Below are positions 23,272-48,291 of a stretch of 64,000 bases of DNA, in pieces. This DNA comes from an uncultured delta proteobacterium. Lineage in GTDB: Bacteria; Myxococcota_A; UBA9160; UBA6930. The first letter of the stretch is position 1. Every line of letters begins with the position of its first letter. The translations under genes and the position numbers were made by a program. The DNA lies in assembly GCA_963722885.1 (NCBI GenBank), contig CAVROS010000037.1, positions 79,138 to 143,137 of the forward strand. Direction: 5' to 3'. The notes under the pieces are model-generated. The model saw only the letters and a program-made list of their open reading frames with translations. It was not told the origin of the DNA and made no database searches.

Positions 23272-23290
23272 GATTCGATTCTAACCACTG

Positions 23291-28134: not shown

Positions 28135-28149
28135 GCGGGAACCGGAAGC

Positions 28150-30702: not shown

Positions 30703-32123
30703 CCGTTCCGCGTCACCAGGCCCGCCTCGACACAGGCTCGGGGCGTGGGAAGGACCTTGCCCGGGTTGCAGATTCCCTGGGGATCGAAGGCCGCGCGCAG
30801 CCGGCGCATCGCGTCGAGATCGTCCTCACCGAAGAGAAGCCCCATGAATTTCTGCTTCTCGTTGCCGATCCCGTGCTCGCCACTGAGCACCCCGCCAGCG
30901 TCGACGCAGACCCGGAGGATCTCCTCGCCGGCGGCGAGCACTCGCTTCATCTCGTCGGCATCGCGGCGATCGAAGGAGATGATCGGGTGGAGGTTCCCGT
31001 CGCCGGCGTGGAAGACGTTCGACAGGCGCAGGCGGTAGCGGTCTCCGATCTCGCAGATCCGTTCCAGAACCTCCGGCAGCCTCACCCTGGGCACCACGGT
31101 GTCGTACAGGTAGAGATCCGGCGCGAGCCTCCCCATGGCACCGAAGGCTCCCTTGCGTGCCCGCCAGAAGCGCTCGCGTTCCTGATCGTCCCGCGCGACC
31201 TCGACGCGGTCGGCGCCGGACTGCGCGATCAGGCCGCGGACGCGCTCCACCTCCTGGGCCACCACCACGGCAGGGCCGTCGAGCTCGATCAGCAACATGG
31301 CGCCCGCGTCGGTGGGAAGACCGGCGGCATAGACACTGGCCTCGACGGCGGCGATGGTGCGTTGATCGATCACCTCGAGGGAGGCGGGCACGAGTCCCGC
31401 GCCGATGATCGCACCGACGGACCGGCAGGCCGAGAACACGTCGGGGAAGACGGCGAGAAGTGTCTCCACCGACTGGGGAAGCTCGAGGAGCCGAACCGTT
31501 GCCTCCGTCACCACGCCGAGGGTTCCCTCGGATCCGACGAAGGCCCCCACCAGGTCATAGCCCTGCGTCCAGCCGGTGCGGGAGCCGAAGCTCGCGAACT
31601 CGCCATTCGGGAGAACGACTTCGAGGGCGAGCACGTGGTCGGTGGTGGTGCCGTACTTGAGCGTGTGGGGCCCTCCCGAGTTCTCCGCCACGTTGCCTCC
31701 GATGGTGCAGGCCGCCTGGCTGGAGGGATCCGGGGCGAAGAAGAGACCGTGGGGCGCCACCGCCTTCGACAGCTCGAGGTTGATCACGCCGGGCTGCACC
31801 ACCGCATAGCGATCCTCGAGATTCACCTCGAGAATCTGGTTCATTCGCGCGCACTCGATCACCACCCCGCCGTCCAGGGCGAGGGCGCCTCCAGAGAGCC
31901 CGGTCCCCGCGCCGCGCGCCACGAAGGGGACACCGAAGGCTTGGCAGGTCTTCACGACCCCGGCGACCTGGGCCTTCTCCCGGGGCAGCACCACGGCCCG
32001 GGGGCGGGCGCGGTGGAGGGTGAGACCGTCGGCCTCGTAGACGAAGAGATCTTCGGGGCGCACCAGGCAGGCATCGTCTCCGACGACGCCGCGGAGTGAC
32101 GTGACGAGATCCGGAACGGGCAC
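30699..32123 (-). CDS. glcD: Glycolate oxidase subunit GlcD (FAD-linked oxidase)
   Basis: Intact 474-aa ORF reading VVLPREKAQVAGVVKTC, FVARGAGTGLSGGA, IGGNVAENSGGPHTLKYGTT and GVLSGEHGIG. Confidence 0.9.
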   Translation of the reverse strand: MPVPDLVTSLRGVVGDDACLVRPEDLFVYEADGLTLHRARPRAVVLPREKAQVAGVVKTCQAFGVPFVARGAGTGLSGGALALDGGVVIECARMNQILEVNLEDRYAVVQPGVINLELSKAVAPHGLFFAPDPSSQAACTIGGNVAENSGGPHTLKYGTTTDHVLALEVVLPNGEFASFGSRTGWTQGYDLVGAFVGSEGTLGVVTEATVRLLELPQSVETLLAVFPDVFSACRSVGAIIGAGLVPASLEVIDQRTIAAVEASVYAAGLPTDAGAMLLIELDGPAVVVAQEVERVRGLIAQSGADRVEVARDDQERERFWRARKGAFGAMGRLAPDLYLYDTVVPRVRLPEVLERICEIGDRYRLRLSNVFHAGDGNLHPIISFDRRDADEMKRVLAAGEEILRVCVDAGGVLSGEHGIGNEKQKFMGLLFGEDDLDAMRRLRAAFDPQGICNPGKVLPTPRACVEAGLVTRNG

Positions 32124-32126
32124 GGC

Positions 32127-33165
32127 TCAGGCCAGGCCGAGCCGCTCGAGATCATCCTCGTCGAGGCCGAGATAGTGGCCGATCTCGTGCTTGACGGTGA
32201 TCTGGATCTGCTCGACCAGCTCGGCGTGGGTGCGGCAGACCTTCTCCAGATTTCTCTTGAAGAGAATCATGCGATCCACGTCGCGGGCCTGGGCGGTCAC
32301 CGCCGCCTCGGTCCGAGGAACGCCAATGAAGACCCCCAGGATCTGCGGCGAGACGCTCTCCTCCGCGAGCAGCTCGGCGGAGGGAAAATCCTCGACGAGC
32401 AGCGGGAACGTGTTCGATGTACTCGCGGATCGAGCGCGGGAGATCGCGCATTGCCTCACCGGCCACCTGCTCGAAGTCGCGATCGTCCACCGCCACGGGC
32501 ACCGGGTAGTGCCCTCCGTCCAGCGCGTGGGCCTGAGCGAAGGCCCGACCCGCTTCCTCGTTCTCTCCCAGCCGCTCGAGAACCAGACCCAGGTGGTAGA
32601 GCGCGTGCGCCGACTCGGGGTCGAGCCCCACGGCGTGCTCCAGGTAACGACGGGCCTCCTCGAAGCGTCCGAGCTCGAAGGTGATCTGCCCCTCGAAGGC
32701 ACGGTAGACCGCCACCTCACCGACGGTCTTGCCGGCTCGCCGAACCAGGAACAGCGCGCCTTCGAGATCGTCCAGGTAGAACAGGGCCTTGGACTTGAGG
32801 TAGTAGATCTCCGCCTCGGTGGCGCGGTCCGGACGGGGCAGGTCGGGACTCCCCGAGAGCAACAGGTCGCACTGGCCGATGGCCTGATCGAACTCACCGA
32901 GCTCCTCGATCAGAAGCTCCGCGCGGTTGAGCTGCGCAGTCACGAATTTGGGATCGGCCATTGCGGCGAGCTCGACCTCGTAGAGCGCTTCGTCGATCCT
33001 CCCTTCGTCCCAGAGAATCTCGCCGCGACCGTTGTGAGCTTCGGCTCCGTTCGGTTGTGCCTTCAACGCCTCGTCGAGCCAGGCGAGCGCCTCGTCCGTA
33101 CGACCGCCGTGGGACGCTTCCATCGCCTGGTCCAGGCAATCCCAGTATCGATCCCGATCCTTCAT
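32127..33165 (-). CDS. TPR-repeat protein fused to a small zincin-like metallopeptidase domain (HEIGH), with one frameshift as assembled (~32405-32415)
   Basis: The TPR-like part (ALAWLDEALKAQPNGAEAHNGRGEILWDEGRIDEAL ... ALYHLGLVLERLGENEEA) is in one frame. The C-terminal part LLVEDFPSAELL ... ITVKHEIGHYLGLDEDDLERLGL is in another. The stop lies 3 nt before the glcD start. Confidence 0.75.
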
Positions 33166-33359
33166 TGGTGGGCGGCAGAATAGCAGAATCCGCAACCCCA
33201 TCGCGTTTCGGGTCTCCGTCGGAGCCGGATCGTAACTATTCGATTTAAAAGGAGAAAATCAAGTTTTGCGAGCACCGGGGGAACGCCGCACGGCGGCTTC
33301 GCAGGAGGCTTCGCAAACCGGCGTTCTACCGCCCGTTTCGGGCTTCCCGCCAGCGCGGG

Positions 33360-33957
33360 TCAGGCGTGGAAGGCGTGACGCCAGGCGGCGATCACCTCCT
33401 CGCGCACCTCGCTCTGGGAAAGACCCGCCATGAAGGGGGACGGGTTGCGCCCGCTGAGGGCCAGCAGCACGAACCCGTGGAGCAAGGACCAGCCCACCAT
33501 GACGAAGGCGTCCGGATCGCCTTCGCGCAGGACGCCGGACGCGATGCCTCGCGCGTGGGTGTCTCGGAACAGGTTCCAGAGCCGTGACCGATGGGCGATG
33601 TCGTCGGGGGTGAAGGCCTGGACGGAGGTGTCCTGGAACATCAGGCGATAGATCTCCGGGTTCGCCAGGCCGAAGTCGATGTAGCGCTTGGAGCCTTCCA
33701 CGAGTCGCCTCGGCCGGGTCGGGGAGGCGCAGGCAGGGTTCCAGCGCCGCGATCAGCCGATCGAAGCCTTCCAGGGCAAGGTCGTGGAGAAGCTCCCTCT
33801 TGTTCTGGAAGTACAGATAGATCGTGGCGGGCGAGTAGCCGAGCCTCTCCGCCAGGGAGCGCATGGTGACGTTCTCGACGCCATGCTTCTGGACGATGTC
33901 GATGGCTTCCTGGAGGATCTTCTCGCGCAGGGAGGCGCCCGGCGCAGTGCTGCTCAT
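33360..33957 (-). CDS. TetR/AcrR-family transcriptional regulator, one frameshift as assembled (~33704-33710)
   Basis: The HTH part (REKILQEAIDIVQKHGVENVTMRSLAERLGYSPATIYLYFQNKRELL) is in the frame of ORF 33259-34035. The ligand-domain part (EGSKRYIDFGLANPEIYRLMF ... WSLLHGFVLLAL) is in the frame of ORF 33360-33701. Confidence 0.85.
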
Positions 33958-34052
33958 GACCCACCTCGAGGCCCGGCGCCCGGCTCGCGACCGACCGCAG
34001 CCCGGGTCATTCGACACCCGCGAAAAGGCTATCACCGCGCCCGCCGATCGGC

Positions 34053-34081
34053 CAACCCTCGGGGGGGGGCAACCCTCGGGG
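34053..34081. repeat. Direct repeat CAACCCTCGGGG x2 joined through a G9 homopolymer (34061-34069)
   Basis: Read directly: CAACCCTCGGGGGGGGGCAACCCTCGGGG. It lies about 100 nt upstream of the TetR start on the minus strand and 33 nt beyond the stop of the LLM oxidoreductase gene. Confidence 0.9.
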
Positions 34082-34113
34082 AAGGCGCGGCAGACTGGCC
34101 TCGAGCGCGGGCC

Positions 34114-35037
34114 TCAGGCCTGCCCGACCTCGGCGCGAATGCGTTCGTGGATCTTCTCCAGGTCATCGCAGAGGGCGCCGGCATTCTGCCCCCCGGCGAC
34201 GTAGACCGCACTGGCGTTGAGGGCGGCCCCTCCGAAGCCCGCCTCCTTCGCTGCGCGTGCCACCGCTGCGATCTTGTCCGGGCTCGCATGGAAAGCGAGC
34301 CCAAAGGGATCTTCCGGATCCGGCGGAGCGGCGATCTGCGCCTGGAACCCCAGCCCCTCGGGATCTCGGCCCGCCTCCTCCGCGTGCTTCTTGATGATCC
34401 CGATGGCCGCCACGTCTTGCTCGGTGATGGCGCCGTTCGCCATCCAGCCGTCACCCAGCCTCCCGGCGCGCCGCAGTGCGGCGGGCGAATCGCCTCCAAC
34501 CCAGATCGGGATCGCCCCGGCCTGGGGCGGCTTCGGCTCCATCGCCAGCTGGGTCGCCTTGTAGTAGCTGCCCTCGAAATCGACCGACTTCTCTGACCAG
34601 TAGGTCCGCAGCAGAGGGATCGCCTCGTCCATCATCTTGCCCCGCTTGCGGAAGGCCGTACCCAGGGCCTCGTACTCGCACTCCTGCCAGCCCACCCCGA
34701 CTCCGAGGCGAATGCGGCCGGCGGATAGCGTATCCAGGGTGCTGATCTGCTTGGCGACCAGGGCCGGCTGCCGCTGGGGGAGGATCAGCACCTCGATCCC
34801 CAGCCCGACCCGCTCCGTCACCGCCGCGAGAAAGCCGAGCCCGACCAGGGGCTCGAGGATGGGCATCTCGGTCGGATAGGGCCCGGCGATGCGCCCCTCC
34901 ATCGGGTGGCCCATCACCACGTGATCGAAGAGATCGATCTGGTCGAAGCCGATCGACTCTGCGGCGCGTCCAACCTGAGCGACGGCCGCCGGGCCCTCGC
35001 GGTAGACGATGTGCGGAAATTGCAGTGCCAGCTTCAT
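34114..35037 (-). CDS. Luciferase-like monooxygenase (LLM) class, probably F420-dependent, oxidoreductase
   Basis: Start taken at the internal MKLALQF. The TIM-barrel LLM pattern reads FDQIDLFDHVV ... GIEVLILPQRQPALVAKQISTLDTLSAGRIRLGVGVGW ... IWVGGDSPAALRRAGRLGDGW. Confidence 0.75.
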   Translation of the reverse strand: MKLALQFPHIVYREGPAAVAQVGRAAESIGFDQIDLFDHVVMGHPMEGRIAGPYPTEMPILEPLVGLGFLAAVTERVGLGIEVLILPQRQPALVAKQISTLDTLSAGRIRLGVGVGWQECEYEALGTAFRKRGKMMDEAIPLLRTYWSEKSVDFEGSYYKATQLAMEPKPPQAGAIPIWVGGDSPAALRRAGRLGDGWMANGAITEQDVAAIGIIKKHAEEAGRDPEGLGFQAQIAAPPDPEDPFGLAFHASPDKIAAVARAAKEAGFGGAALNASAVYVAGGQNAGALCDDLEKIHERIRAEVGQA

Positions 35038-35302
35038 TGGAGCTCCCATCCTTGCGAAACTTGCCTGCGCGGACTTGCCGGAGGCCCTTCGGATCGGGCG
35101 CATTGTGGCACGAACCCGACGATTGGCGAAAGGCCGGGCCAGGCGCCAGATTTACGCTGCTAGAGCCGGGGGAAAACCCCACACCGTGCCGAAATCGATA
35201 CGGGCCCTGAAGTTTTTTAATGGAAGCGAGACTTACGCGCGGGTAAGCTGGGAGCCGGCAGGGGAGTAGGGAAGAGCAGCCGAAATCAATCGCGGGGGGG
35301 AC

Positions 35303-37317
35303 GTGATGCGAGGGTGCACGCTCAACGAACGGCACGCGGGTTGGGTACGAGTCGCGACCTGTGTTTCCGTGGTCGCCGTCCTGGCCTTCCTGGGTGCGGC
35401 CGGGACCGGCCCCGCCGCGGCCGTCGACTTCGAGGTCGGGGAGCTTCGGGGCAACGTGGACACCACGGTCTCGGCGGGCTTCTCGATGCGCGTCCAGGAC
35501 CGCGACTGCAGGATGATCTGGGTGAACAACGGCGGCTGCCAGACCACGGATGGCTTCACCAACTTCGACGACGGCGATCTCAACTACGACATGTGGGACG
35601 TCTTCGCGAACACCTACAAGGCGACCGTCGACGTCGAGCTGGCCTGGAGAAACTACGGGGGCTTCTTCCGAGGCAGCGTCTTCTACGACCTCGCTACCAT
35701 GGGGACCGACACCGCCCGCACCGACCTCGCCCGGGAGTCGCTCTACACCAGCAGCGCCTTCCGAAGCGGCGTCGTCGGCATGGGCTACCAGCTGCTGGAC
35801 GCCTACCTCTACGGAAACTACGAGGTCGCCGGGCGCCCCCTGGAGATCCGCGCCGGCAACCAGTTGCTGAACTGGGGGGAGAGCCTCTTCTACCAGGGCG
35901 TCAACGTGACCAACGCAGTCGATCTGAACCGTCTGCGGGCTCCGGGCTCCCTGATCCGAGAGGCGCTGCTTCCGGCGCCGATGGTGCGCGCGTCGGCCGA
36001 GATCTTCCAGAACTTCAGCATCGAGGCCTACTACCAGGCGTACTGGAATCGCGTCGAGCTCGATCCCACAGGCAGCTACTTCTCCTTCAACGACCTTACC
36101 GGCCGCGGCGCCGAGGGCTTCTTCCTCGATCAGGATCCGGGATCGAGCGGGAAGAGTCCGGAGCAGCTCTTCCACACGGGCTTGAGCGGGGAGCAGCTCG
36201 GCGCCCTGGGCTTCCCGGCGGAGCCGATCGATGACGGTGATCACAGCCGCCGACCGGTCAGGGGGCGCTCTACGACAACTTCATCACTCGGCGCTCAACT
36301 CGCTCGGGTATCTTCCCGTCCACCATCACCTACCTCGACGTCTTCTTTCCGGCGGGCATCCCCCAGCTGGCCGATCGGGACGCCCGCAAGCAGGGGCAGT
36401 GGGGCGTGGCGCTGCGCTACTTCGCCGACGCCATCCGCACCGAGTTCGGCGCCTACTACATCCGCTTCCACAGCAAGCAGCCCACGCTCGGCTTCGTCGC
36501 CGATCCCTCCGACCTGATGGCCACCACCTTCTTCATCCCGGAGAGCTTCGGTCCCTTCCTGCCTATCCGCTGGCTTGCCGCCGGAGAATCTGCCGCCCAA
36601 CCCGCGTCGACGTGACGGACCGAGACGGCGCCGGTCCCGGTCGGCTACTTCCGGGAGTACCCCGAGGACATCAACATCTTCGGGGTGAGCGCCGCCACCG
36701 AGATCTTCGGCATCGCCTGGGGCGCGGAGATCTCCTACACCACCCAGCTTCCCGTGACCGTCACCACCGCCTTCCCGGACGCGCTGGCCGAGGCCGCGGC
36801 GACCGGCCAGCGGGCCACGGTCTCGGGCTTCGTGCGGGAGGAGAGGCTTCAGGCCCACCTGAGCGCGATCGCCACGATCGGACCGGGGGACCCGTACGTG
36901 GGCGCGATCGTCCGCGCGCTGCAGATCAGCAGCATCGCCGTGACCGGCGAGGTGGTGTTGGTGGAGTTCCCGAACTTCGACGAGAGCCTCGGCTACGCCA
37001 CGGTCAACAACACGGGCCGGCCAACCGAGTTCAGCTGGGCCTACACGACGCTGATCCGGGGCGACTACGACAACCCTCTGGGGGTCCCGATCACGGTGAC
37101 GCCGAGAGTCAGCTTCAGCCACGCCGTGAACGGCACCTACGCCCGGTCCACAACCCAGTTCATCGAGGACACGATGAGCTTCTCGGCGGGCGTCAACGTG
37201 GACTACCTGGGTGTCTGGCAGTTCGACCTGTCCTACGTCAACTTCTTCGGAGGCGGAGACAGCAACCCCGTGATCGATCGGGACTACGTCTCGTTCAGCG
37301 TAACGCGCAGCTTCTGA
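35303..37317 (+). CDS. DUF1302-family predicted outer-membrane beta-barrel protein, with one frameshift (~36241-36262) and one in-frame TGA (36613-36615) as assembled
   Basis: The signal peptide (VVAVLAFLGAAGTGPAAA) is followed by VDFEVGELRGNVDTTVSAGFSMR ... LLDAYLYGNYEVAGRPLEIRAGNQLLNWGES, typical of DUF1302. Later parts (QWGVALRYFADAIRTEFGAYYIRFHSKQP; YFREYPEDINIFGVSAATEIFGIAWGAEISY) are in another frame. The C-terminus reads ...VSFSVTRSF. Confidence 0.8.
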
Positions 37318-37389
37318 GAGCTCCGCGGGGGCGCTCGCTAGCGAGGGGAATCGCCAACCTCAGCATCGGATTCAGCAGGAGGAAGAGCA

Positions 37390-38776
37390 ATGGCCAGATG
37401 GACTGCCACCGCGCTCGCGGTCGCGCTGGCGCTTGCGGCGACGGCCGCCTTCGCAGTCCCCACCGAGGAGGAGATCGCCCGCCTCGGCGGACCGGAGCTC
37501 ACACCCGTCGGCGCGGAGCGGGCCGGCAATGCCGAGGGCACCATCCCCGAGTGGACGGGCGGCGTCACCGAGCCGCCCCCGGGGTGGGAGCCGGGGATGA
37601 AGCGGCCCAACCTCTTCGCCGACGATCCGATCCTCTTCACCATCGACGCCAGCAACGTCGACCAGCACGCCGACAAGCTCACCCCGGGGCAGATCGCACT
37701 CATCAAGAGCTACGACGGCTACATCATGAACGTCTACCCGACCCGCCGGAGCTGCGCCTTCCCGGAGGCGGACTACGAGAACGCCAAGCGCAACGCGCGC
37801 GAGGCCTCGGTCGACGACCAGTGCTTCATCACCGATGGCAGGTGGAGTCCCCTCTTTCCGCTTCCCGAGAACGGCTGTCAGGTCCTCCAGAACGGCAGGC
37901 TCTCGATATTGAACGGCCTGATAGGGAGCGACAGGATCGAGGCCACGCTGATTCCGACCAAGAGCGGCTCCTTCGTGCCGGTTGTAAGGAGACAGGTCCT
38001 GTACAATCGGACCCACGACCCGAAGTTCGAGACCATCGAAGATCTCGATGGCATCTGGGCCAAGTCGCTCTCCCACAACATGGCGCCGCCCAAGCAGGCC
38101 GGCGAGATCACCCTGGTCTACTCGCTCACCGACGGTCACCTCAAGGCCTGGACCTACAATCCCGGCCAGCGGCGGGTGCGGCGCAACCCCAACTTCGAGT
38201 ACGACAACCCGATTCCCGGCTTCCAGGGTCTGATGACCATCGACGCGACCAACGGCTTCATCGGCGCCGCGGATCGCTACAACTGGAAGCTGCTGGGGAA
38301 GAAGGAGATCTACATCCCCTACAACAGCGTGAAGTTCTTCGACACCGACCTCAAGTACAAGGACATCATCCAGCCCCGCTACCCGCGGCGGGACCTGATC
38401 CGCTACGAGCTGCACCGGGTCTGGGTGGTGGAGGGCACCGTCAGGCCGGACAAGCGGCACACCATCGCCAGGCGCGTCTTCTACATTGACGAGGACCACT
38501 GGATACATAGCCGTGGTCGACGGCTACGACACCAGAGAGAATCTCTGGCGGGTGTCCGAGCACCTTCCACAGCTCCTCTTCGAGGTCCCTTCCTGTATCG
38601 CCAACGGCAGCCTCTTGTACGACCTGGTGGCGGGCCGCTACGTGATCACGCCGGCCATCAACGAGGAGAAGGAACCCATCTACGAACACCTCGGGATGCC
38701 AGCCGAAGAACGCACCCTCGCAGACGACAAGGGTCTCTTCAATCCGGACGACCTGCGGCGCATGGGGAAGCGCTGA
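37390..38776 (+). CDS. DUF1329-family periplasmic/outer-membrane-associated protein, one frameshift as assembled (~38503)
   Basis: An AGGAGG RBS precedes the signal peptide MARWTATALAVALALAATAAFA. Characteristic segments are GTIPEWTGG, YNPGQRRVRRNPNFEYDNP, YNWKLLGKKEIYIPYN and RYELHRVWVVEG. The tail (YIAVVDGYDTRENLWRVSE ...) is in the next frame. Confidence 0.8.
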
Positions 38777-38798
38777 GGAGCGGTAGAGCAGAGCATCC

Positions 38799-41149
38799 GT
38801 GATCCGCTTCCTCGAGAACCTGGTCTTCCGCCACCGCATCGCGCTCCTGATCGTCGTCGGGGCGATCACGGTCGGTGATGGGCTACTTCGCCGCCCAGCT
38901 CCGCATGGATGCCGGCTTCGAGAAGCAGCTTCCGCGAGATCACGAGTACATCCAGACCTTCCTCGAGTATCAGGACCGGCTCTTCGGCTCGAATCGAGTC
39001 ATCTTCGTGCTGCGCGCCAAGCAGGGCGACGTCTGGACCCAGCCCTTCCTGGCCAAGCTGAAGGCGCTGACCGACGACGTCTTCTTCCTCCCGGGCGTCG
39101 ACCGGCGAACGGTCACCTCGATCTGGACGCCCAACACCCGCTACTTCGAGATCACCGAGGAGGGGCTGATCGCCGACGACGTGATCTCCGCCGATGTCCT
39201 CGCCACCCGGATGAACGACGAGGACATCGAGGTGATCCGGCGCAACGTCATCAAGGGCGGCTTCGTCGGACGTCTGGTCGCCAAGGACTACACGGCCGCG
39301 ATGGTGACGGCCGAGCTCCTGGACGTCGACCCCAAGACGGAGGAGAGGCTCGACTACCTGGAGCTCGCCAAGCGGATCGAGAAGGAGATCCGGCAGAAGC
39401 ACGAGAGCGAGGACTTCGACGTCCACATCCTCGGCTTCGTCACCATGATGGGCCAGATCGCCGAGGGTGCAAAGAGCGCCTTCCGGTTCTTCGCCCTGGC
39501 CTTCATCCTCACCGCCGCCGCGGTCTACTACTACTCGCGCTCCTGGATCCTGACCGTCCTGCCGCTGTTCTGCTCGCTCACCTCCGTGCTCTGGCTGTTC
39601 GGCGCGATTCACCTGCTGGGCTTCGGGCTGGACCCGCTGGCCATCCTGGTTCCCTTCCTGGTGTTCGCCATCGGAGTGTCGCACTCGGTCCAGCAGATCA
39701 ATCTGATCTCGAAGCAGGTCTGCGGCGGAGCCGACAGCATCACCGCCGCCCGGCGGAGCTTCAGCGGGCTGCTGGTTCCCGGCTCCATGGCGATCGTCAC
39801 CGACATGGTCGGATTCGGCATCCTGGTGGTCATCCCCATCGGGATGATCGAGGAGCTGGGAATCACGGCGATGATCGGAGTCGCCTTCAAGATCATCACC
39901 ATCCTGGTGATGCTGCCGGTCCTCGCCTCCTTCTTCAAATTCGACGAGCGCTACATCGACCGCATCGTGCGCGCGCGGGAGGCTCGAGAGAGGTTCATTC
40001 GTCGCCTGGGAAGGATCGCGGAGACCGCGCAACGCAGTGGTGGCAGTCGTATTCTTCGTCGCCCTCTTCGCGGTGGCCCTCTGGCAGGGCACGGGCCGAC
40101 ACGTGGGCGACGTCCATCCCGGCTCGCCGGAGCTCCGCTCCGACTCCCGCTTCAACCGGGACGCCGTCACCATCGTGAGCAAGTTCTCCCTCGGACTCGA
40201 CGTGCTCACCGTGATCGTCGAGACACCCGAGGAGTCCTGCATCGACTACGAGGCGATGCAGTATCTGAACGAGCTCAGCTGGCACATCCAGAACGTCCCG
40301 GGAGTGCTGTCCGTGGCTTCCGTCCCGGTGATCGCCAAGCAGATCAACGCGGGCGGAGCCGAGGGGAACCTCAAGTGGGCCACGCTTCCGCGCAACCGCT
40401 ATCTGCTGGTGAGGGCGGTGGGGCACCTCCCCGAGGAGACGGGGCTGCTGAATGCGGAGTGCACCCTGATGCCCATCTACGCCTTCACGGCCGACCACAA
40501 GGCCGAGACGATCAAGCGCGCGATCGCCGCCGTGCACGAATTCCGGGAAAGCCATCCGAGGGATGACATCCGGATCCGCCTGGCGAGCGGCAGCGTCGGG
40601 GTCCAGGCCGCCATCAACGAGGAGCTCGAGCGGTCCGAGGCGCCGATCATGCTCTACGTCTACGCCGCCATCATCGCGCTGGTGCTCGTGACCTACCGCG
40701 ACTGGCGCGCCACCATCTGCTGCTGCGTGCCTCTCGCCGTGGCGACGGCCTCGGGCTACTGGTTCATGAAGGAGCTCGAGATCGGTCTCAAGGTGGCGAC
40801 CATGCCGGTCATGGTGCTGGCGGTCGGCCTCGGCGTGGATTACGCCTTCTACATCTACAACCGCCTGCAGTTCCACCTCTCCGAGGGCCTCGACATCACC
40901 ACCGCCTACCAGCAGACCCTCTTCGAGACCGGGAACGCGGTGATCTTCACCGCCGTCACGCTGGCGATCGGCGTCTCCACCTGGTCCTTCTCCGCCCTCA
41001 AGTTCCAGGCGGACATGGGCTTGCTGCTGACCTTCATGTTCATGGTCAACATGGTCATGGCCGTGACGATGCTGCCGGCGCTGGCGGTCACGATCGACCT
41101 GATCGTTCCGCGGCGCCACAGGGTCAAGGCGCCCACCATCGGCCGCTGA
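38799..41149 (+). CDS. RND-superfamily transporter of the MMPL/HpnN-like type (COG1033-like), two frameshifts as assembled (~38872-38880 and ~40030-40040)
   Basis: Three colinear frame segments make about 780 aa. There are two hydrophobic bundles (e.g. FFALAFILTAAAVYYYSRSWILTVLPLFCSLTSVLWLFGAIHLLGF and YVYAAIIALVLVTYRDWRATICCCVPLAVATASGYWFM), each preceded by a soluble loop. Confidence 0.8.
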
Positions 41150-41160
41150 AGGAGAACGCC

Positions 41161-41640
41161 GTGCTGACCAAGGCGATACGAGAGCTGCTGGCCAAGAGGC
41201 CCGGACCGGCTCCCGGCCCGGAGCGGCCCTTCGAAGTCCAGACGCTGGCCGCCGCGGCGCTGATGGTGGAGTGTGCGCGCATCGACGGCGCCTTCGGCGA
41301 GAGGGAGCGCGACGCGATCTGCCAGGCCGTCCGGGAGGCCTTCGCCCTCGATCACGAGACGGCGGAGATCCTGGTCGGAGTCGCCGAGAAGCACGAAGAC
41401 GAGATGTGGGACAACTGGCTCTTCACCGAGACGATCAAGAGGCACTTCAGTCAGGACGAGCAGATCGAAATCGTTCGAAGACTGTGGGAAATCGCCCTGG
41501 TGGACGAACACCTTCACCCCTTCGAGGAGCGCCTGATCGAACGCGTCGCGCGCGAGCTGGACCTCCCGGAGGAGGCGGTTGCCCGGAGCCGAGAGCAGGC
41601 CATCGAACGGACGGGCGGGGAAGAGGAGCCGCGCGGATGA
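41161..41640 (+). CDS. TerB-domain (tellurite-resistance TerB-like) protein
   Basis: Intact 159-aa ORF with an AAGGAG RBS. The pattern MVECARIDGAFGERERDAICQAV ... EQIEIVRRLWEIALVDEHLHPFEERLIERVARELDL is typical of TerB-like four-helix domains. Confidence 0.7.
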   Translation: MLTKAIRELLAKRPGPAPGPERPFEVQTLAAAALMVECARIDGAFGERERDAICQAVREAFALDHETAEILVGVAEKHEDEMWDNWLFTETIKRHFSQDEQIEIVRRLWEIALVDEHLHPFEERLIERVARELDLPEEAVARSREQAIERTGGEEEPRG

Positions 41641-42595
41641 ACCGCGGGTGGCCGAAGAGCTGGAGGCATTTCCTCTGGGTGCTGACGCTGGCATTGTTCG
41701 CCGCGTCGGGTGCCGAGGCCGCAGAGGAGCAGGCGATCCCCTCGCGGCTCGCGACGAAATCGCTTCTGGTCGATGTGGCGCGCGCGAACGGTCGCCTGGT
41801 CACCGTCGGCGAGTGGGGCCACGTGTTGCTCTCCGACGACAGCGGCGGGAGCTGGCGCCAGGCCGAATCGGTTCCGACCCGGGCCACCTTGACCGCGGTC
41901 ACCTTCGTCGATGCCAAGCGGGGCTGGGCGGTGGGGCACGATGTGCTCGTGATCCACACCCGCGACGGTGGTGAGACCTGGGAGCTGCAGCATCAGGATC
42001 TCGGCGGAGGAGGCGCCGCTGCTCACGGTCTGGTTCCAGGACGCCAAGCGCGGCCTCGCGGCGGGGGCGTTCGGCCTGTTGCTCGAGACCACGGACGGCG
42101 GTGAGACCTGGCAGCGTCGCCCGCTCACCTCGAACCCGGGGGACGACTATCATCTGAATGCCATCTTCCGCGGCCCCGGCGACACGCTCTTCATTGCGGC
42201 GGAATCCGGCTCGATCTACCGCTCGCTGGACGACGGTGCGTCCTGGGAGCGTCTCCACCCGCCCTACAGAGGATCCTTCTGGGGGGGGCTCACAGTCGAG
42301 TCCGGAAGCCTTCCTGGTGTTCGGCATGCGCGGCCACGTCTTCCGCAGCGAGGACCGGGGAGAGAGCTGGCAGGAGCTGGAGAGCGGCACCGATCAGTCT
42401 CTCCAGTCCGGCATCGTCCGAGCGGATGGAACCATCGTCCTGGTCGGGCTCGGCGGCGCCGTCTTGACCAGCAGCGACGGCGGCAGGACCTTCTCCGCGG
42501 CGATCGAGCCCGATCGCCGCGGGATCGCGGCCGCAGCGGAGGGCGTCAACGGGAAGCTGCTGCTCTTCGGCGAGACGGGTGTCAAAGTCCGCTAG
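41637..42595 (+). CDS. Ycf48/BNR-repeat-like beta-propeller protein (secreted), two frameshifts as assembled (~41997-42010 and the G8 run at 42281-42288)
   Basis: The ATG overlaps the TerB stop (ATGA). It has a signal peptide (WVLTLALFAASGAEA) and six Asp-box-like motifs across three frames: SDDSGGSW, TRDGGETW, TTDGGETW, SLDDGASW, SEDRGESW, SSDGGRTF. Confidence 0.8.
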
Positions 42596-42631
42596 CCTGC
42601 AGTTCTCACTGGGTCGCGTAGCGAGGGAGCG

Positions 42632-45028
42632 ATGAGTCGGCCTCTCGGCTGGCCTCTGGCGGGAATTCAGGTGGTCGATCTCTCCACAGAGATCGCGGGG
42701 CCCTACTGCACGAAGATGCTCGTCGACGCCGGTGCCGAGGTCGTCAAGGTCGAGTCGCCCGATGGAGGCGACCCGCTCCGACGCTGGACGGCGTCGGGCG
42801 CGCCGATCGCCGAGGGCGAGGACGGTGCGCTCTTCCAGCACCTGAACGCCTCGAAGCGCAGCGTCATCCTCGACCTCGAGAGCAGCGCCGGACGCGAGAC
42901 CCTTCTCGATCTTGCAGCGACAGCGGACCTGGTGGTGGAGAGCTTCGGCCCGGGAGAGCTGGCGCTCCTGGGCCTGACATTCGAGCTGCTGCAGGCGCGG
43001 AATCCGGCGCTCTCGCTGGTTTCGATCTCGCCGTGGGGAAGCGACGGCCCCTGGGCAGAGCGCCCCGCCACCGAGTTCACCCTTCAGGCCGCGACCGGAT
43101 CGACGGCCCATCGGGGTCTCGCGAGCCGCGAGCCGGTGGCGGCGGGTGGCCGGATCGGCGAGTGGATCGCCGGCGGCTTCGCCGCCGTCGGGGCGCTCTT
43201 CGCCTGGCTCTCGGCGCGCAACACCGGAAGAGGTCAGCACGTCGACCTCTCGATCTTCGAGGCGATGCTGCTCAGCATGACCTACTACCACGACCTGAGC
43301 GGACAGTGGCGCGAGGGGAAGCTGCCCCGGGGAATCGAGGTCCCTTCCGTCGAGCCGGCCAGGGACGGCTGGGTGGGCTTCTGCACCATCACCGGCCAGC
43401 AGTGGCTGGACTTCTGCGTCCTGATCGGACAGCCCGAGCTCGCCAAGGACGAGCGCTACCTGGAAGGGACGTTTCGAAGTCAACAGCTCGAGTTCATGCA
43501 GAAGATCGTTCACGGCTGGACGCGGGAGCGCACCGTCGACGAGATCATCGAGCTCGCCAGCTTGATGCGGATTCCCGTCGCGCCGATCGGCGACGGACGA
43601 AACCTCCCGAAGATGGACCACTTCGCCCGGCGCGGCAGCTTCGTCGAGGGTCCGGGCGGCTTCGTGCGGCCGCGGCCACCCTATTTGCTCGAAAAGACCG
43701 CGCTCAGACCTTTTGGCCCCGCGCCGAAGCTGGGAGAGCATACCGACCAGGTGGCGGCGGCGCGGAAGGTCACGGCGCCAAGGATCTCGGCCGGCGAGGG
43801 AGGTGGAGCCCTGCCGCTCGGCGGCTTGCGCGTCGTCGAGCTCTCCAACTTCTGGGCTGGCCCGATCGCGGGATGGACCCTCGCCGACATGGGCGCGGAC
43901 GTGGTCAAGGTCGAGTCGATCCAACGCCCGGACGGCATGCGCTTCGCTGGAGCGATCCCCACCGACCGCCTCTGGGAATGGTCACCGATCTTCGCCGGAG
44001 TGAATCCGGGAAAGCGCGGAGTGACGCTACAGCTCGACAGCGAGGAGGGGATGACACTCCTCGAGCGCCTGATCCGCGGCGCGGACGTCGTGACCGAGAA
44101 CTTCTCCGCCCGCGTGATGGACAATTTCGGCCTGGGCTGGGACAGGATCCATGCGCTCAATCCCAGCGCCATCATGCTGAGGATGCCGGCATTCGGTCTC
44201 GACGGCCCCTGGCGCGACCGCGCGGGCTTCGCCATGACCGTCGAGCAGGCGAGCGGACTGGCATGGATCACCGGCTACGACGACCTTCCGCTGGTCCCAC
44301 GCGGTCCCTGCGATCCGATCGGCGGGATGCACGCGGTCTTCGCGCTGCTGCTGGCGCTCGAACACCGCCGCCAGACCGGCGAGGGCCAGCTCGTCGAGGT
44401 TCCGCTGGTCGAGGCCGCCCTGAACGTCGCGGCGGAGCAGGTGATCGAGTACTCCGCCTACGGTCAGCTGCTGACGCGCGCCGCGAACCGCGGCCCCTAC
44501 GCCGCTCCGCAGGGAGTCTACCGCTGTGCCGAGAAAGACGAGTACCTGGCACTGGCCGTGGCCACCGAAGCTCAGTGGCAGCGGCTCTGCGCACTGATGG
44601 ATGAGAGCGAGTGGTCTCGCGATCCCACCCTGGCCTCGGCACGCGGACGTCGCGAAGCCCACGATGAGATCGACGCGCGGATCGGGCAGTGGCTATCGAT
44701 GCAGAAGCGCGACGAAGCGGTCCAGAAGCTGGTCGATGCCGGCGTCCCCGCCCACCCCCTGGTCAACGGGCACTTCCTGATGCCCAATCCGCAGCTCGAA
44801 CACCGCCGCTTCTTCCAGGTGATGGAGCACCCCGTCACCGGCGAGACGCGCTATCCCGGTCTGCCGATGGCCTTCTCCGGACTGGAACGCCACCTGCATG
44901 CGAGCCCGCCACCCACACTCGGTCAGCACAACGACGAGATTCTGGGCGGGGAGCTGGGGCTCTCTGCCAACGAGCTCCGAGGGCTGCGCGAACGAAAGAT
45001 CATCGGCGAGCGCCCGTCATTCATGTAA
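42632..45028 (+). CDS. Tandem fusion of two family III (CaiB/BaiF-type) CoA-transferase modules
   Basis: Intact 798-aa ORF. Module 1 starts LAGIQVVDLSTEIAGPYCTKMLVDAGAEVVKVESPDGGDPLRRW. Module 2 starts LGGLRVVELSNFWAGPIAGWTLADMGADVVKVESIQRPDGMRF. Confidence 0.85.
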   Translation: MSRPLGWPLAGIQVVDLSTEIAGPYCTKMLVDAGAEVVKVESPDGGDPLRRWTASGAPIAEGEDGALFQHLNASKRSVILDLESSAGRETLLDLAATADLVVESFGPGELALLGLTFELLQARNPALSLVSISPWGSDGPWAERPATEFTLQAATGSTAHRGLASREPVAAGGRIGEWIAGGFAAVGALFAWLSARNTGRGQHVDLSIFEAMLLSMTYYHDLSGQWREGKLPRGIEVPSVEPARDGWVGFCTITGQQWLDFCVLIGQPELAKDERYLEGTFRSQQLEFMQKIVHGWTRERTVDEIIELASLMRIPVAPIGDGRNLPKMDHFARRGSFVEGPGGFVRPRPPYLLEKTALRPFGPAPKLGEHTDQVAAARKVTAPRISAGEGGGALPLGGLRVVELSNFWAGPIAGWTLADMGADVVKVESIQRPDGMRFAGAIPTDRLWEWSPIFAGVNPGKRGVTLQLDSEEGMTLLERLIRGADVVTENFSARVMDNFGLGWDRIHALNPSAIMLRMPAFGLDGPWRDRAGFAMTVEQASGLAWITGYDDLPLVPRGPCDPIGGMHAVFALLLALEHRRQTGEGQLVEVPLVEAALNVAAEQVIEYSAYGQLLTRAANRGPYAAPQGVYRCAEKDEYLALAVATEAQWQRLCALMDESEWSRDPTLASARGRREAHDEIDARIGQWLSMQKRDEAVQKLVDAGVPAHPLVNGHFLMPNPQLEHRRFFQVMEHPVTGETRYPGLPMAFSGLERHLHASPPPTLGQHNDEILGGELGLSANELRGLRERKIIGERPSFM

Positions 45029-45040
45029 GGAGTTGCGCGT

Positions 45041-45820
45041 ATGATCCTGGAAGATCGAACCCTGGTGGTATCCGGTGTGGGCACCGGGCTGGGACGCGAG
45101 GTGGCGCGCCTCGCTCTCCGCGATGGAGCTCGGGTCGTCCTGGCGGCCCGCACCGAGTCGGTCCTCGAGGCGACAGCCCGGGAGCTGGATCCCTCGGGTG
45201 AGCGCATCGCCTACGCCCGAACCGACATCATCAGCGCAGACGACTGCGAGGCATTGACCGCCCTCGCCCTGGAGCGGTTCGAACGCATCGATGCGGTGGT
45301 CCAGGTCGCCGCGTACGAGATCGTCTTCGGCGGACTGCATGAGACGGATTTCGAGAAGTGGCGCCAAGCCTACGAGACCAACGTACTCGGGAGTCTGACA
45401 CTGATCCGCGCGATCGCTCCCCGGATGAAGAGTGCGGGGGGCGGGTCACTGGTCTTGATCGGGTCGCAGGCGATGTACCAGCAGCAGATGCCGCACGCGG
45501 GCTACGCCGCCTCCAAGGGCGCGCTGCTCTCCGCCATGTACTACCTCGCGCACGAACTCGGTCCGGACCGGATCCGCGTCAACATGGTCGTCCCCAGCTG
45601 GATGTGGGGACCGCCGGTCGAGGCCTTCGTCAAGCTGCGGGCGAAGACCGAAGAAAGACCGGAAAAAGCGATCGTGGATGAGATCACCGGCCGCATCCCC
45701 CTCGGCGAGATCGTTCCCGACGAGGACGTCGCCGAGGCGGCTCTCTTCCTCGCCTCCGACCGAGCGCGCTGCATCACCGGTCAGACCCTGATGGTAAACG
45801 GCGGAGAGCTGATGCGCTGA
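45041..45820 (+). CDS. SDR family oxidoreductase
   Basis: Intact 259-aa ORF with an AGGAG RBS. Motifs are VSGVGTGLGREVA, IGSQAM ... AGYAASKGAL and MVNGG. Confidence 0.85.
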   Translation: MILEDRTLVVSGVGTGLGREVARLALRDGARVVLAARTESVLEATARELDPSGERIAYARTDIISADDCEALTALALERFERIDAVVQVAAYEIVFGGLHETDFEKWRQAYETNVLGSLTLIRAIAPRMKSAGGGSLVLIGSQAMYQQQMPHAGYAASKGALLSAMYYLAHELGPDRIRVNMVVPSWMWGPPVEAFVKLRAKTEERPEKAIVDEITGRIPLGEIVPDEDVAEAALFLASDRARCITGQTLMVNGGELMR

Positions 45821-45851
45821 CCCCGCAGGCCGCTGCCGAGGAGAATTCTTC

Positions 45852-46925
45852 ATGTCTCACAAAGTGATCCTCTGGGGAACGGGCTTCGTCGGGAAGATGG
45901 TGATCCGGGAGCTGTTCGACCACCCGAGCTACGAGCTGGTCGGCGTGATCACCCACAGCCCGGAGAAGGACGGCGTCGACGTGGGCGAGCTCGTCGAGCA
46001 GGAGCCGATCGGCCTGCGCGCCACCACCGACGTCCAGGGTGCACTCGCCACGGACGCGGACGCCGTCGCCTACTTCGGCCCGACGGCCCAGTATGCAGCT
46101 CAGAACATCGAGAACCTGAGCCGCGCGCTCGCCGCGGGCAAGAACGTCGTGGACACCTCGATGACGCCCCTCGTCTACCCCAAGGCGTGTCCTCCGCAGA
46201 TGGTCGCACCTCTCGATCAAGCGTGCCGGGAGGGAGGCACCAGCTGCTTCACCACCGGGATCGATCCCGGCTTCGCCAACGACCTCTTCCCGATGACGCT
46301 GATGGGCCTCTGCGGGCGCGTCGACCGGGTCCGGATCCAGGAGATTCTCGATTACTCCACCTACCCGGGCTCCTACGAGCCCATGGGACTCGGCGATCCG
46401 ATCGAACAGAAGGCGATCCTCGAAAACCCGCGCGCCCTCATCTTCGCCTGGGGACACACCATCCACATGATCGCCGACGCCATCGACGTCGAGCTCGAGA
46501 AGATCGACACCGTCTGGGAGAAATGGCCGACTCCGCAACGGATCGAGTTCGCCCATGGGACGATCCAGCCCGGCGATTGCGCGGCGGTGCGCTTCGAGAT
46601 CCGGGGATTCGTCGGCGGCGAGCCGCGGATCGTCGTCGAGCACTGCAACCGCATCACCAACGCAGCGGCGCCCCACTGGCCAAGGGCGAAGCTCGAAGAG
46701 AACGACGCCTACCGGGTCACCATCGAGGGAAGCCCGAACATCGTTCAGGAAACCACCTTCCGAGGAGAGCAGGACGGCGATCCCAATGCGGGCTCCTGCC
46801 TCGCAACCGGTATGCGCGCCGTCCACGCCATCCCGGCCGTCTGTGCTGCGCCTCCTGGGCTGCTCTCGGCCCTGGACCTTCCGCCGATCCCGGGACGAGG
46901 CAACATGCACCCACACGGCTCGTGA
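45852..46925 (+). CDS. NAD(P)-binding oxidoreductase of the dihydrodipicolinate-reductase-like / amine-dehydrogenase-like family
   Basis: Intact 357-aa ORF with the N-terminal Rossmann KVILWGTGFVGKMVIREL. Length and layout resemble DapB-N-domain proteins. The assignment is by resemblance. Confidence 0.6.
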   Translation: MSHKVILWGTGFVGKMVIRELFDHPSYELVGVITHSPEKDGVDVGELVEQEPIGLRATTDVQGALATDADAVAYFGPTAQYAAQNIENLSRALAAGKNVVDTSMTPLVYPKACPPQMVAPLDQACREGGTSCFTTGIDPGFANDLFPMTLMGLCGRVDRVRIQEILDYSTYPGSYEPMGLGDPIEQKAILENPRALIFAWGHTIHMIADAIDVELEKIDTVWEKWPTPQRIEFAHGTIQPGDCAAVRFEIRGFVGGEPRIVVEHCNRITNAAAPHWPRAKLEENDAYRVTIEGSPNIVQETTFRGEQDGDPNAGSCLATGMRAVHAIPAVCAAPPGLLSALDLPPIPGRGNMHPHGS

Positions 46926-46931
46926 GTCTTC

Positions 46932-47522
46932 TCAGCCTCTAGCGTCCCCGCCGTCATTGGCGTGAAGCTTGGGGAGCAGCTTCGTGATGTGGTCGGTGAG
47001 ACGGAAGAGGGTGTCCAGCTCGCAGCCCTGGCGCTTGCGCATCTCCGCCACGGCGGTGGAGGAGAGGCGCTCGCCCATCTTCATGCACAGGTAGTTGACG
47101 CAGATGTGGTCGCGCGCCGGAAGCCGGCAGCCCGTGGAGCCGAGGAAGAGGCAGCTCTCTTCGTCGCGCCATTCCTTCTCGATCACTGCACCCAACATCA
47201 GGTTGATCAGCAGCAGCACACCGTCGTAGTGGTCCTCCATCCCCCGGCCACAGCACGAGCCGCCCTCTTCCTCCTCACAAGCGCGGCAATTCTCGACCAG
47301 GCCGGCGCCGACCATGGACTCTCTCGAGGCGGCCACGTGAGCGCGCAGCTCTGCGAGGAGGCGATCGACGACCTCGTCCTCGCGCAGGCGCGCGCCGTAG
47401 AGCCGGTGCTGCTCCTGCGCCCAGGCGTACCGCGCCTCGATGGTACCGCCCCGCGACCCACCTGCTCCCATCGATCCGCCCACCCTAGACAAGCCTCCCG
47501 CCGGAGCGATGGCCCAGCGCAC
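46932..47522 (-). CDS. Cysteine-rich hypothetical protein (possible metal or Fe-S cluster binding)
   Basis: Cysteine clusters are CRACEEEEGGSCCG, CLFLGSTGC and CVNYLC. They loosely resemble CxxCxxCC (YkgJ-type) cluster proteins. The start is uncertain (47522 or the internal Met at 47471). Confidence 0.5.
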   Translation of the reverse strand: MRWAIAPAGGLSRVGGSMGAGGSRGGTIEARYAWAQEQHRLYGARLREDEVVDRLLAELRAHVAASRESMVGAGLVENCRACEEEEGGSCCGRGMEDHYDGVLLLINLMLGAVIEKEWRDEESCLFLGSTGCRLPARDHICVNYLCMKMGERLSSTAVAEMRKRQGCELDTLFRLTDHITKLLPKLHANDGGDARG

Positions 47523-47643
47523 TCGAAGTCATGGAAAGACCTTAGCGCCCCTCTCAACCGTCGGGGCGTGAGCCGCGCTCAAGCGGTGCGCTCTACACGC
47601 CGATGAGAGAAGGCCGAGGCAGCAGGCCAAGAGGAGCAGACCC

Positions 47644-48291
47644 ATGACGGAGCCTTCCATCAAGGGATCGATCTTCAGGGGAGCCATCGACGACCTCGCC
47701 CGCCTGCAACGCGAGGGGCGCGTATCCCAGGAGGAAGTCGACGCCCAGCTGGCCACCGAGGACCTCGCCTTTCTCGAGGGCGAGACCAGCTCCGCGGGCT
47801 GGTACCCGATCGAGAGCTACGCCCGTCTGATAGAGCTCCTCGGTGACCTCGAAGGCGGCGGCAAGGATGCCTACTTCGTCGAGAGAGGAAGGGCCAGCGC
47901 GCGGCGCCTGATGGAGAGTGGGCTCTATCAACAGCTCTCCTTCCTGTCGCGCTGGGACAGCACGCTCGGTGCGGCGGGCGACGACACGTCGGCGACGATC
48001 GCGGACTACGCGCGCAACCTCAGGATGGTCACCTCGCTGGCATCGGCCATCTACAACGTGGGCAAGTGGGTGGTCGAGCCCGATCCCGAGCACGCGGGAC
48101 GCGTCTGCATCGCGGTGCGCGAGGCGCGCGCCTACTCGGACCCGATGCGGCTCGCGATCGAGGGGTTCCTCAACGAATGCGCACGCGCTGCTCGCGAGGA
48201 CCTCACCCACCTCCACATCTCCGAGCGACCCGCCCCCGACCTGATGCTCTTCCGCATGACCCGCGACATCATGGATCTCTCCGAAGCCTGA
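47644..48291 (+). CDS. Hypothetical protein (215 aa), possibly DUF2378-like
   Basis: Intact ORF with normal composition (IKGSIFRGAIDDLARL ... WYPIESYARLIELLGDLEGG). The family assignment is tentative. Confidence 0.6.
   Translation: MTEPSIKGSIFRGAIDDLARLQREGRVSQEEVDAQLATEDLAFLEGETSSAGWYPIESYARLIELLGDLEGGGKDAYFVERGRASARRLMESGLYQQLSFLSRWDSTLGAAGDDTSATIADYARNLRMVTSLASAIYNVGKWVVEPDPEHAGRVCIAVREARAYSDPMRLAIEGFLNECARAAREDLTHLHISERPAPDLMLFRMTRDIMDLSEA

Follow-up and report, generated by a model that had tools for sequence, protein, structure and literature searches.

Two domains of unknown function, DUF1302 and DUF1329, have been described in Gram-negative bacteria together with a Ycf48-like beta-propeller and an RND permease, and here we compare with these described sets a five-gene operon from an uncultured delta proteobacterium of the lineage Myxococcota_A. 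The operon occupies positions 35303-42595 on the forward strand of a 64,000-nucleotide (nt) stretch (assembly GCA_963722885.1, contig CAVROS010000037.1, positions 79,138 to 143,137), which we refer to as the window, and it encodes a DUF1302 protein, a DUF1329 protein, an HAE3/MMPL-type RND permease, a TerB-domain protein, and a Ycf48-like propeller. Its closest described relative is AmeABCD of Castellaniella defragrans, a four-gene set that is coinduced on monoterpenes and whose deletion lowers tolerance to monoterpene hydrocarbons and raises the accumulation of Nile Red (PMC6394551). The authors of that work regard it as a tetrapartite exporter of the HAE3 RND type, with AmeB and AmeC standing in for membrane fusion proteins (MFPs), and they term the Ame RND lineage a probable new HAE3 subfamily (PMC6394551).

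The same four families were found to be cofit in Shewanella, Kangiella, and Pseudomonas stutzeri/fluorescens by transposon sequencing with random barcodes (RB-TnSeq), leading to the proposal that they export a cell wall component (10.1101/072470). The members of this cofitness cluster are Sama_1588-1591, Psest_1122-1123 with Psest_1923-1924, and PP_0765/0766 with PP_2018/2019; the Pseudomonas set is thus divided over two loci, and TerB was not reported there. Pseudomonas putida needs all four families when it is given Tween 20 or butyl stearate (10.1101/2020.07.04.188060). Judging from AlphaFold contacts, DUF1302 and DUF1329 would form one complex and DUF1329, the propeller, and the RND another, which was described as “a novel transport system” (PMC10866462). 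A 2026 study modeled DUF1302 as a barrel of 18 strands similar to the AlgE/Occ channels and obtained an AlphaFold-Multimer interface predicted template modeling score of 0.84 for DUF1302-DUF1329 (PMC13499233). AupA/AupB, the alkane uptake proteins of Marinobacter, were considered as a further DUF1302/DUF1329 pair and dropped, AupA having been shown to be FadL-like.

Given this body of work, the description of the module as uncharacterised in an earlier note on this DNA, made from the sequence alone, was overstated, even though the four-gene core, already published, is biochemically unproven in its mechanism. What is new here is the gene order barrel-carrier-RND-TerB-propeller (O-L-R-T-B; A-B-D-TerB-C in Ame letters) and the recurrent TerB component. 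Like AmeABCD, whose propeller is a COG4447 Ycf48-like protein, the window locus combines the four families in one codirectional cassette; both lack an MFP and an outer membrane factor (OMF), and both lie among genes for the catabolism of hydrophobic compounds. The two differ in order, Ame being A-B-C-D, in the additional cytoplasmic TerB of the window, and in their host, since the window comes from a different, uncultured lineage and is known from sequence only. Taking all evidence together, we consider that the locus is probably a functional tetrapartite RND operon of the AmeABCD type that appears broken only through assembly errors and would work as an outward shuttle with TerB as an accessory.

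Gene content and family assignment

The window has a G+C content of ~67%, and its raw lists of open reading frames (ORFs) contain many spurious frames. The true frame was followed via third-position GC periodicity, and the resulting pieces were searched against Pfam and NCBIfam, with ~70 window ORFs submitted to Pfam. These profile hidden Markov model (HMM) matches bore out the five family assignments made earlier from the letters alone, and the spacings given with them were reproduced to the nucleotide: 72 nt between the DUF1302 and DUF1329 genes, 22 nt to the RND gene, and 11 nt to the TerB gene, whose stop overlaps the start of the propeller gene by 4 nt (ATGA, 41637-41640).

The DUF1302 gene starts with GTG at 35303 or, likelier, with ATG at 35306. 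Two window pieces match PF06980 at 4e-81 and 2e-39, and the intact orthologue scores 498 bits across the full profile. On the corrected ORF (see below) we recovered both features that had been taken as marks of an outer membrane barrel, a signal peptide, which is cleavable and has no lipobox Cys, and the C-terminal end ...VTRSF with its terminal Phe. The DUF1329 product matches PF07044 at 2e-89 and, weakly, LolA_like, with its orthologue reaching 355 bits over profile positions 1-368; it, too, has the cleavable signal peptide ascribed to it, again without a lipobox Cys. A sequence search of the PDB with DUF1302 and DUF1329 gave no matches.

The propeller was recognized by PF14870 (PSII_BNR) on three window pieces and by BNR matches, and its orthologue matches the Ycf48 structures 2xbg/5ojr at 1e-23. 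Six Asp boxes and a cleavable signal peptide without a lipobox Cys agree with the earlier prediction of a secreted six-Asp-box propeller. In contrast to the Ycf48/HCF136 photosystem II assembly factor, the window locus has no photosynthesis genes in its context, and the intact orthologue scores 86.8 bits against NF010237, the Ycf48/HCF136 equivalog, which has a cut-off of 326.

Both halves of the RND permease match PF03176 (MMPL), a family whose cut-off is passed with 83 bits, and TIGR00921 (HAE3) is the best NCBIfam match. The intact orthologue falls far short of the HpnN models TIGR03480/NF052374 (39.5/24 bits, cut-offs 752/1100), the HAE1 models (23-32 bits, cut-offs 940-2200), and the MmpL3 models, and the window ORFs scanned include none for hopanoid biosynthesis. 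By these scores, the permease appears closer to HAE3 than to HpnN or actinobacterial MmpL, so that, of the earlier description as a 12-TM RND protein of the MMPL/HpnN type, the MMPL family and the 12 transmembrane (TM) helices stand and HpnN does not. The helices follow a 1+5 / 1+5 layout with two periplasmic loops of ~200 amino acids (aa) each; since the loops are this short, the protein lacks an AcrB-style docking domain. Two residue pairs, S294-H295 in TM4 and D680-Y681 in TM10, are invariant in 70 full-length RND homologues. As the proton relay of MmpL3 uses Asp-Tyr pairs, it is plausible by analogy that these four residues form a putative proton relay.

Sequence matches in the PDB are remote (1e-8) and of the MmpL type, and all matched structures are exporters. 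With the lipid exporters MmpL3, MmpL4-5, and HpnN, which pass lipids to periplasmic acceptors, the permease shares 12 TM helices, small periplasmic loops, an Asp-Tyr-type putative relay in TM10, and the lack of a TolC-docking domain; the similarity is remote, however, with Ser-His instead of Asp-Tyr in TM4 and with other partners. Compared with HAE1 pumps such as AcrAB-TolC, both are proton-driven RND systems with periplasmic and outer membrane partners spanning the envelope, but the window permease has 782 aa versus ~1000 aa and lacks the large porter/docking domains, and it is accompanied not by an MFP and a TolC duct but by a propeller, a LolA-like carrier, and a porin-like barrel. None of the ~70 window ORFs matched an HlyD/MFP or OEP/TolC family in Pfam, consistent with the classical partners having been reported missing.

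Frameshifts and intactness of the module

All four envelope genes are frameshifted in this assembly, as had been observed before, but the defects number 13 rather than about one per gene, and they are not confined to the envelope genes. A base-by-base comparison with the related locus L083 (ERZ25039600 contig_45606; ~95% nt identity, every locus gene full length) showed that all 13 are single-base insertions, none of which sits in a long homopolymer; the eight in the DUF1302 gene are clustered within 390 nt (Table 1). Deleting the 13 bases yields ORFs of 668, 461, 782, and 318 aa, which are 82-94% identical to intact orthologues: 90% for DUF1302 (against the 665-aa L083 protein) and, against L086, 94% for DUF1329 (433/461), 93% for the permease (724/782), and 82% for the propeller. 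A simpler single-shift model of the DUF1302 gene was rejected, since no pair of deletions reopens its frame and eight corrections are required.

Intact versions of the module exist in several relatives. L086, a metagenome contig from JGI, has ~90% nt identity to the window and all five genes intact. All five genes are likewise intact in L003 (CAZTOU010000032.1), a contig of a short-read metagenome-assembled genome (MAG) retrieved by an RND-alignment scan of the genome collection, which is syntenic with window positions 30421-48275 at ~84% nt identity; its “Spirochaetales” label is probably a binning label. In the sister assembly L084, whose TerB is identical in sequence, the breaks lie elsewhere, including in the CoA-transferase and short-chain dehydrogenase/reductase (SDR) genes downstream of the module, and L083, too, contains one or more indels not shared with the window, one of them at the equivalent of 38672. 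Within the window, at least five unrelated genes are also frameshifted (RluD-like, GlcF-like Fer4+CCG+CCG, TPR, TetR with two shifts, and MFS_2); patchy single-base indel errors run through the whole assembly.

That 13 insertions fall in the four envelope genes while the TerB, CoA-transferase, SDR, and DapB-like genes read through could be taken to mean that the locus is a decaying pseudogene whose frameshifts are real and whose machine is nonfunctional in this organism. Mutational decay in bacteria is biased to deletion. Here, by contrast, every one of the 13 events adds a single base (+1), and none is a deletion, nonsense codon, or truncation, a pattern that bears the signature of long-read consensus error and not of decay. 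The GC3/codon periodicity is undiminished across the shifted segments, and when the module genes are compared with intact orthologues, four of the five have a ratio of nonsynonymous to synonymous substitutions (dN/dS) of 0.22-0.33 and the barrel, with its variable loops and error cluster, has 0.50, values about equal to the 0.15-0.21 of the intact flanking genes; the module is under purifying selection. Together with same-population long-read sister assemblies that are intact (L083) or broken elsewhere (L084), the intact L086 locus, the eightfold clustering within 390 nt, and the frameshifts in the unrelated window genes, this makes the frameshifts almost certainly sequencing or assembly errors, judging from the sequences compared, and decay very improbable; the suggestion that the locus might be a decayed remnant was not borne out.

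A further stretch of the window, 25845-28134 (+), shows strong coding periodicity over 2.3 kb with five phase switches and three long overlapping frames without a Pfam match, and it probably represents one or two unknown genes in which indel errors abound.

Conservation and gene order

To survey the neighborhoods of related modules, HMMs of the five proteins were applied to the ORFs, in all six frames, of 80 species-level genome loci and of additional metagenome loci. In ~60 of the 80, the four core genes lie side by side, so the synteny that the earlier note had proposed to look for is strong. The commonest order is DUF1329-DUF1302-RND-propeller, found in Burkholderiales, Rhodocyclales, and Pseudomonas. 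The Ame/Shewanella order DUF1302-DUF1329-propeller-RND occurred only in L056, L064, and L080, and the window clade (the window, L003, and L083-L086) has DUF1302-DUF1329-RND-TerB-propeller.

This tight linkage to an RND operon argues for transport and against the idea that DUF1302 and DUF1329 are an outer membrane-associated esterase/hydrolase, or a surface sensing pair for hydrophobic compounds, rather than a conduit. RB-TnSeq with fatty esters had prompted the idea of an esterase (10.1101/2020.07.04.188060), but neither protein matches a hydrolase family, and the original authors' group later preferred transport (PMC10866462). Sensing has a possible parallel in Cycloclasticus, where an outer membrane receptor and a periplasmic shuttle sense polycyclic aromatic hydrocarbons (PMC10570129), but the window module has no linked two-component system. 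We therefore regard either role as highly unlikely.

Additional evidence for contact between two of the components comes from a sister clade without TerB, L001 (9336-11267) and P0070, in which the RND C terminus is continued, in the same frame, by the propeller with its signal peptide and body. Both fusions look genuine at the sequence level, and the resulting topology, with a 13th TM helix followed by a periplasmic propeller, is feasible. By the Rosetta-stone argument, such natural fusions support direct docking of the permease and the propeller. An apparent fusion in P0100 was discarded because of frame-shifted junk inside it.

A TerB gene recurs beside the permease gene

The fifth gene of the module encodes a protein that matches PF05099 at 6e-26 (91.4 bits, cut-off 24.4) over profile positions 2-117 of 118. 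Because it has neither a signal peptide nor a TM or other hydrophobic segment, the protein is predicted to be cytoplasmic. A search with TerB recovered the 247-kb contig of the window itself and relatives in the sister assemblies that are 96-98% identical.

Among the 80 genome loci, a TerB gene lies next to the pump genes in 20, always just downstream of the RND or the propeller gene, and these cases fall into four RND clades. The first is the window clade; the second comprises Burkholderiales/Rhodocyclaceae, with RND-TerB-propeller; the third comprises Aromatoleum/Zoogloea, with RND-propeller-TerB; and the fourth comprises alphaproteobacteria (Parvibaculum and relatives), with a bare RND-TerB pair (Table 1) amid unrelated flanking genes. 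No DUF1302, DUF1329, or propeller gene was found within 10 kb of these alphaproteobacterial loci. When sampled from the TerB side, the distant relatives L088 and L089 again lie in RND-TerB-propeller arrays. In the L001/P0070 sister clade, the slot of TerB is occupied by the direct RND-propeller fusion.

The protein shares its Pfam domain (91 bits) and an all-helical model with the TerB of terZABCDE, from which it differs in being a stand-alone 159-aa protein inside an RND operon, without ter operon context: no TerZ, TerA, TerC, TerD, or TerE neighbors were found among the window ORFs scanned, and the adjacent genes encode the RND and BNR proteins. The AlphaFold2 model is of mediocre confidence (predicted local distance difference test score, 68), and its top PDB matches, the TerB-like 2ou3/2h5n, are weak, adding nothing beyond Pfam; a PDB search by sequence gave no matches. 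Our literature search found no paper linking TerB to HAE3 pumps or to the DUF1302-DUF1329-propeller-RND system.

Most likely, this TerB is a cytoplasmic accessory or regulator of the permease. Since its gene travels with the permease gene, whether between the RND and propeller genes, after the propeller gene, or in a bare pair, we also entertain, as a tentative and rather doubtful extension, that TerB might be a dedicated RND partner, i.e., a cytoplasmic regulatory or sensing subunit gating a conveyor of lipids or hydrophobes.

Catabolic neighbors and the direction of transport

The earlier note had proposed a dedicated machine for a hydrophobic substrate in which barrel, DUF1329 protein, and propeller replace the MFP and OMF. 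This is reasonable, given the synteny over 80 loci, although it had already been published for AmeABCD. We suggest the following scheme. The RND permease, driven by the proton gradient, would extract hydrophobic or amphiphilic molecules from the inner membrane, the cargo being either xenobiotic lipophiles or an endogenous envelope lipid. The propeller, docked on the periplasmic loops of the permease, would aid the hand-off to the soluble LolA-like DUF1329 protein, which would carry the cargo across the periplasm to the DUF1302 barrel, and this 18-strand-type barrel would release it into or through the outer membrane. TerB, translationally coupled between the RND and propeller genes, would act on the cytoplasmic side of the permease. 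Overall, the system would resemble a shuttle of the Lol/Lpt or MmpL3 type and not the continuous duct of AcrAB-TolC. We infer the substrate class, the direction, the order of hand-off, and the role of TerB; the outward direction in particular is suggested by the folds, the exporter behavior of characterized RND relatives, the Ame phenotypes, and the published cofolding. To our knowledge, all characterized RND relatives behave as exporters.

The surrounding genes could suggest the opposite direction, with DUF1302 admitting esters, terpenes, or aromatics, DUF1329 carrying them inward, and the RND-propeller pair receiving them for catabolism by neighboring enzymes. The window module is flanked by CoA-transferase, SDR, acyl-CoA synthetase, and luciferase-like monooxygenase (LLM) genes, and the L001 module is flanked by hydrolase and WS/DGAT (wax-ester synthase) genes. 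Catabolic islands that contain DUF1302/DUF1329 genes are known for toluene/phenol, phenanthrene, steroids, and p-cresol (PMC7012976; 10.1101/072470), and P. putida mutants in the four families lose fitness on Tween 20/butyl stearate as carbon source (10.1101/2020.07.04.188060; PMC10866462). However, deletion of AmeABCD raised dye accumulation and toxicity while growth on oxygenated monoterpenes was kept (PMC6394551), and the structures matched by the window permease are, as described above, exporters only. MmpL3/4/5, HpnN, and AcrB all move substrates outward, which likewise counts against uptake.

Moreover, the conservation of the module does not extend to the flanking catabolic genes. The 798-aa CoA-transferase, with two fused family-III domains, occurs only in the window and its nearest relatives, L083-L086, and it is cleanly missing from L003 (12533-12655), where the SDR gene directly follows the propeller gene. 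As L003 is otherwise syntenic, the difference reflects an insertion or deletion that took place recently beside the module. In the remaining loci surveyed, no CoA-transferase, SDR, or DapB-like oxidoreductase gene was linked to the module; the L002 module, for example, lies beside amine dehydrogenase genes, and the literature places related modules beside terpene, phenol, phenanthrene, or steroid genes. The link to the CoA-transferase is thus specific to the window lineage, and the coupling to CoA-dependent metabolism proposed earlier is not conserved: a theme of hydrophobic-compound metabolism holds generally, whereas the specific coupling to CoA chemistry does not. Considering both sides, we find uptake unlikely and prefer export.

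Several points weigh against an intact, outward-pumping operon with TerB as its accessory. The growth phenotypes on Tween 20 and esters (10.1101/2020.07.04.188060) fit uptake equally well. A structure or direct functional characterization of DUF1302 is stated to be lacking (PMC13499233), and literature and PDB searches found no bound ligand, solved structure, or transport assay for any family member. The intact orthologue of the permease reaches 172 bits against TIGR00921, below the NCBIfam HAE3 cut-off of 351.9. The verdict of assembly artifact is indirect, drawn from comparison with other assemblies; L083 and L084 are ~5% divergent from the window at the nt level and are not the same strain. 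With regard to TerB, no RND residues or cytoplasmic-segment lengths separated TerB-linked from TerB-free pumps at an 85%/15% threshold, and a 165-aa TerB relative (55% identical; L087, 7001-7498) lies beside [NiFe]-hydrogenase subunit and maturation genes, with no RND gene. Because of this last case, the linkage between TerB and RND genes, strong as it is, is not absolute.

Surrounding genes and regulation

As the earlier note had it, the operon continues downstream of the propeller gene, with gaps of 36, 12, and 31 nt, into genes for a CoA-transferase, an SDR, and a DapB_N/DAP_DH_C oxidoreductase, and it is divergent from an LLM gene and a TetR-family regulator gene; Pfam matches confirmed both neighbors (Table 1). 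The LLM gene is found in the same place in L003 and L083-L086. The TetR gene, a candidate local regulator of the module, is spread over three frames in the window (tblastn), whereas L083 and L085 have an intact orthologue of 198 aa in the equivalent place. Neither the divergent intergenic region nor the operon, when scanned for a sigma-70 consensus, a terminator, or an inverted repeat, gave a signal above shuffled sequences; no TetR operator can be proposed. An Rfam scan of the whole window found no RNA family.

At 21015-22250 (-), 13 kb upstream of the module, is a gene for a regulator of the LuxR/GerE family; in Pseudomonas, DUF1302/DUF1329 operons are reportedly LuxR regulated. At 23291-24862 (+), the window encodes a citramalate/2-isopropylmalate synthase whose top named homologues belong to “Deltaproteobacteria”/“Myxococcota” MAGs (72-74%); a host among the classical beta- or gammaproteobacteria is improbable. 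The end of the window, 58456-64000, has a lower G+C content (~62%), weak codon periodicity, and no RNA family, and it contains small minus-strand genes for an SDR, DUF6796, DUF924, GNAT, and a PRA isomerase.

Table 1. Features of the module, its surroundings, and related loci (window positions unless a locus is named)
Feature	Position	Strand	Evidence or remark
DUF1302 outer membrane beta-barrel (AmeA-like)	35303/35306-37317	+	PF06980
DUF1329 periplasmic LolA-like protein (AmeB-like)	37390-38776	+	PF07044
HAE3/MMPL-type RND inner membrane permease (AmeD-like)	38799-41149	+	PF03176, TIGR00921
TerB-domain protein, 159 aa, intact	41161-41640	+	PF05099
Ycf48-like BNR/Asp-box beta-propeller (AmeC-like), periplasmic	41637-42595	+	PF14870, BNR
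Insertions in DUF1302 gene (8)	36232, 36245, 36292, 36295, 36311, ~36567, 36605, 36619		
Insertion in DUF1329 gene (1)	38505		
Insertions in RND gene (2)	38872, 40027		
Insertions in propeller gene (2)	42003, 42299		
Divergent intergenic region, presumed promoter/regulatory region	35104-35302	.	Position from gene map
Luciferase-like monooxygenase (LLM), divergent from module	34114-35103	-	PF00296 2.5e-50
TetR-family regulator, frameshifted twice in assembly	33240-33964	-	TetR_N 3.5e-13
Double family-III CoA-transferase	42632-45028	+	Pfam
SDR	45041-45820	+	Pfam
DapB_N/DAP_DH_C oxidoreductase	45852-46925	+	Pfam
RluD-like S4+PseudoU synthase, frameshifted	22278-23280	-	
Spans of the five unrelated frameshifted window genes, in the order RluD-like, GlcF-like, TPR, TetR, MFS_2	22278-23280, 27346-30658, 32130-33165, 33240-33964, 56720-58476	all -	
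Bare RND-TerB pair	L007 8747-11679		Also L008, L010, L012, L021, L025, L031, L032

Implications

The DUF1302/DUF1329/propeller/RND set, which occurs in Pseudomonas, Burkholderia, and many degraders, is a widespread “known unknown” of the Gram-negative envelope, with fitness phenotypes and an undemonstrated mechanism. The window itself offers no experimental handle, its organism being uncultured and its assembly error-prone, but it shows that the module reaches a lineage outside the classic beta- and gammaproteobacteria. It also gives reason for caution, in that clusters of frameshifts in long-read metagenome contigs should not be taken as pseudogenization. TerB emerges as a recurrent fifth component tied to the permease, and as it is also present in the cultivable Aromatoleum (A. 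diolicum 22Lin, L013; A. anaerobium LuFRes1, L058), Zoogloea (Z. oryzae NBRC 102407, L011), and Cognatazoarcus (C. halotolerans, L006), a knockout is feasible there. If TerB does prove to be a dedicated partner of the permease, RND transporters would gain a type of accessory subunit not described before, and the TerB fold would gain a cellular role that is new.

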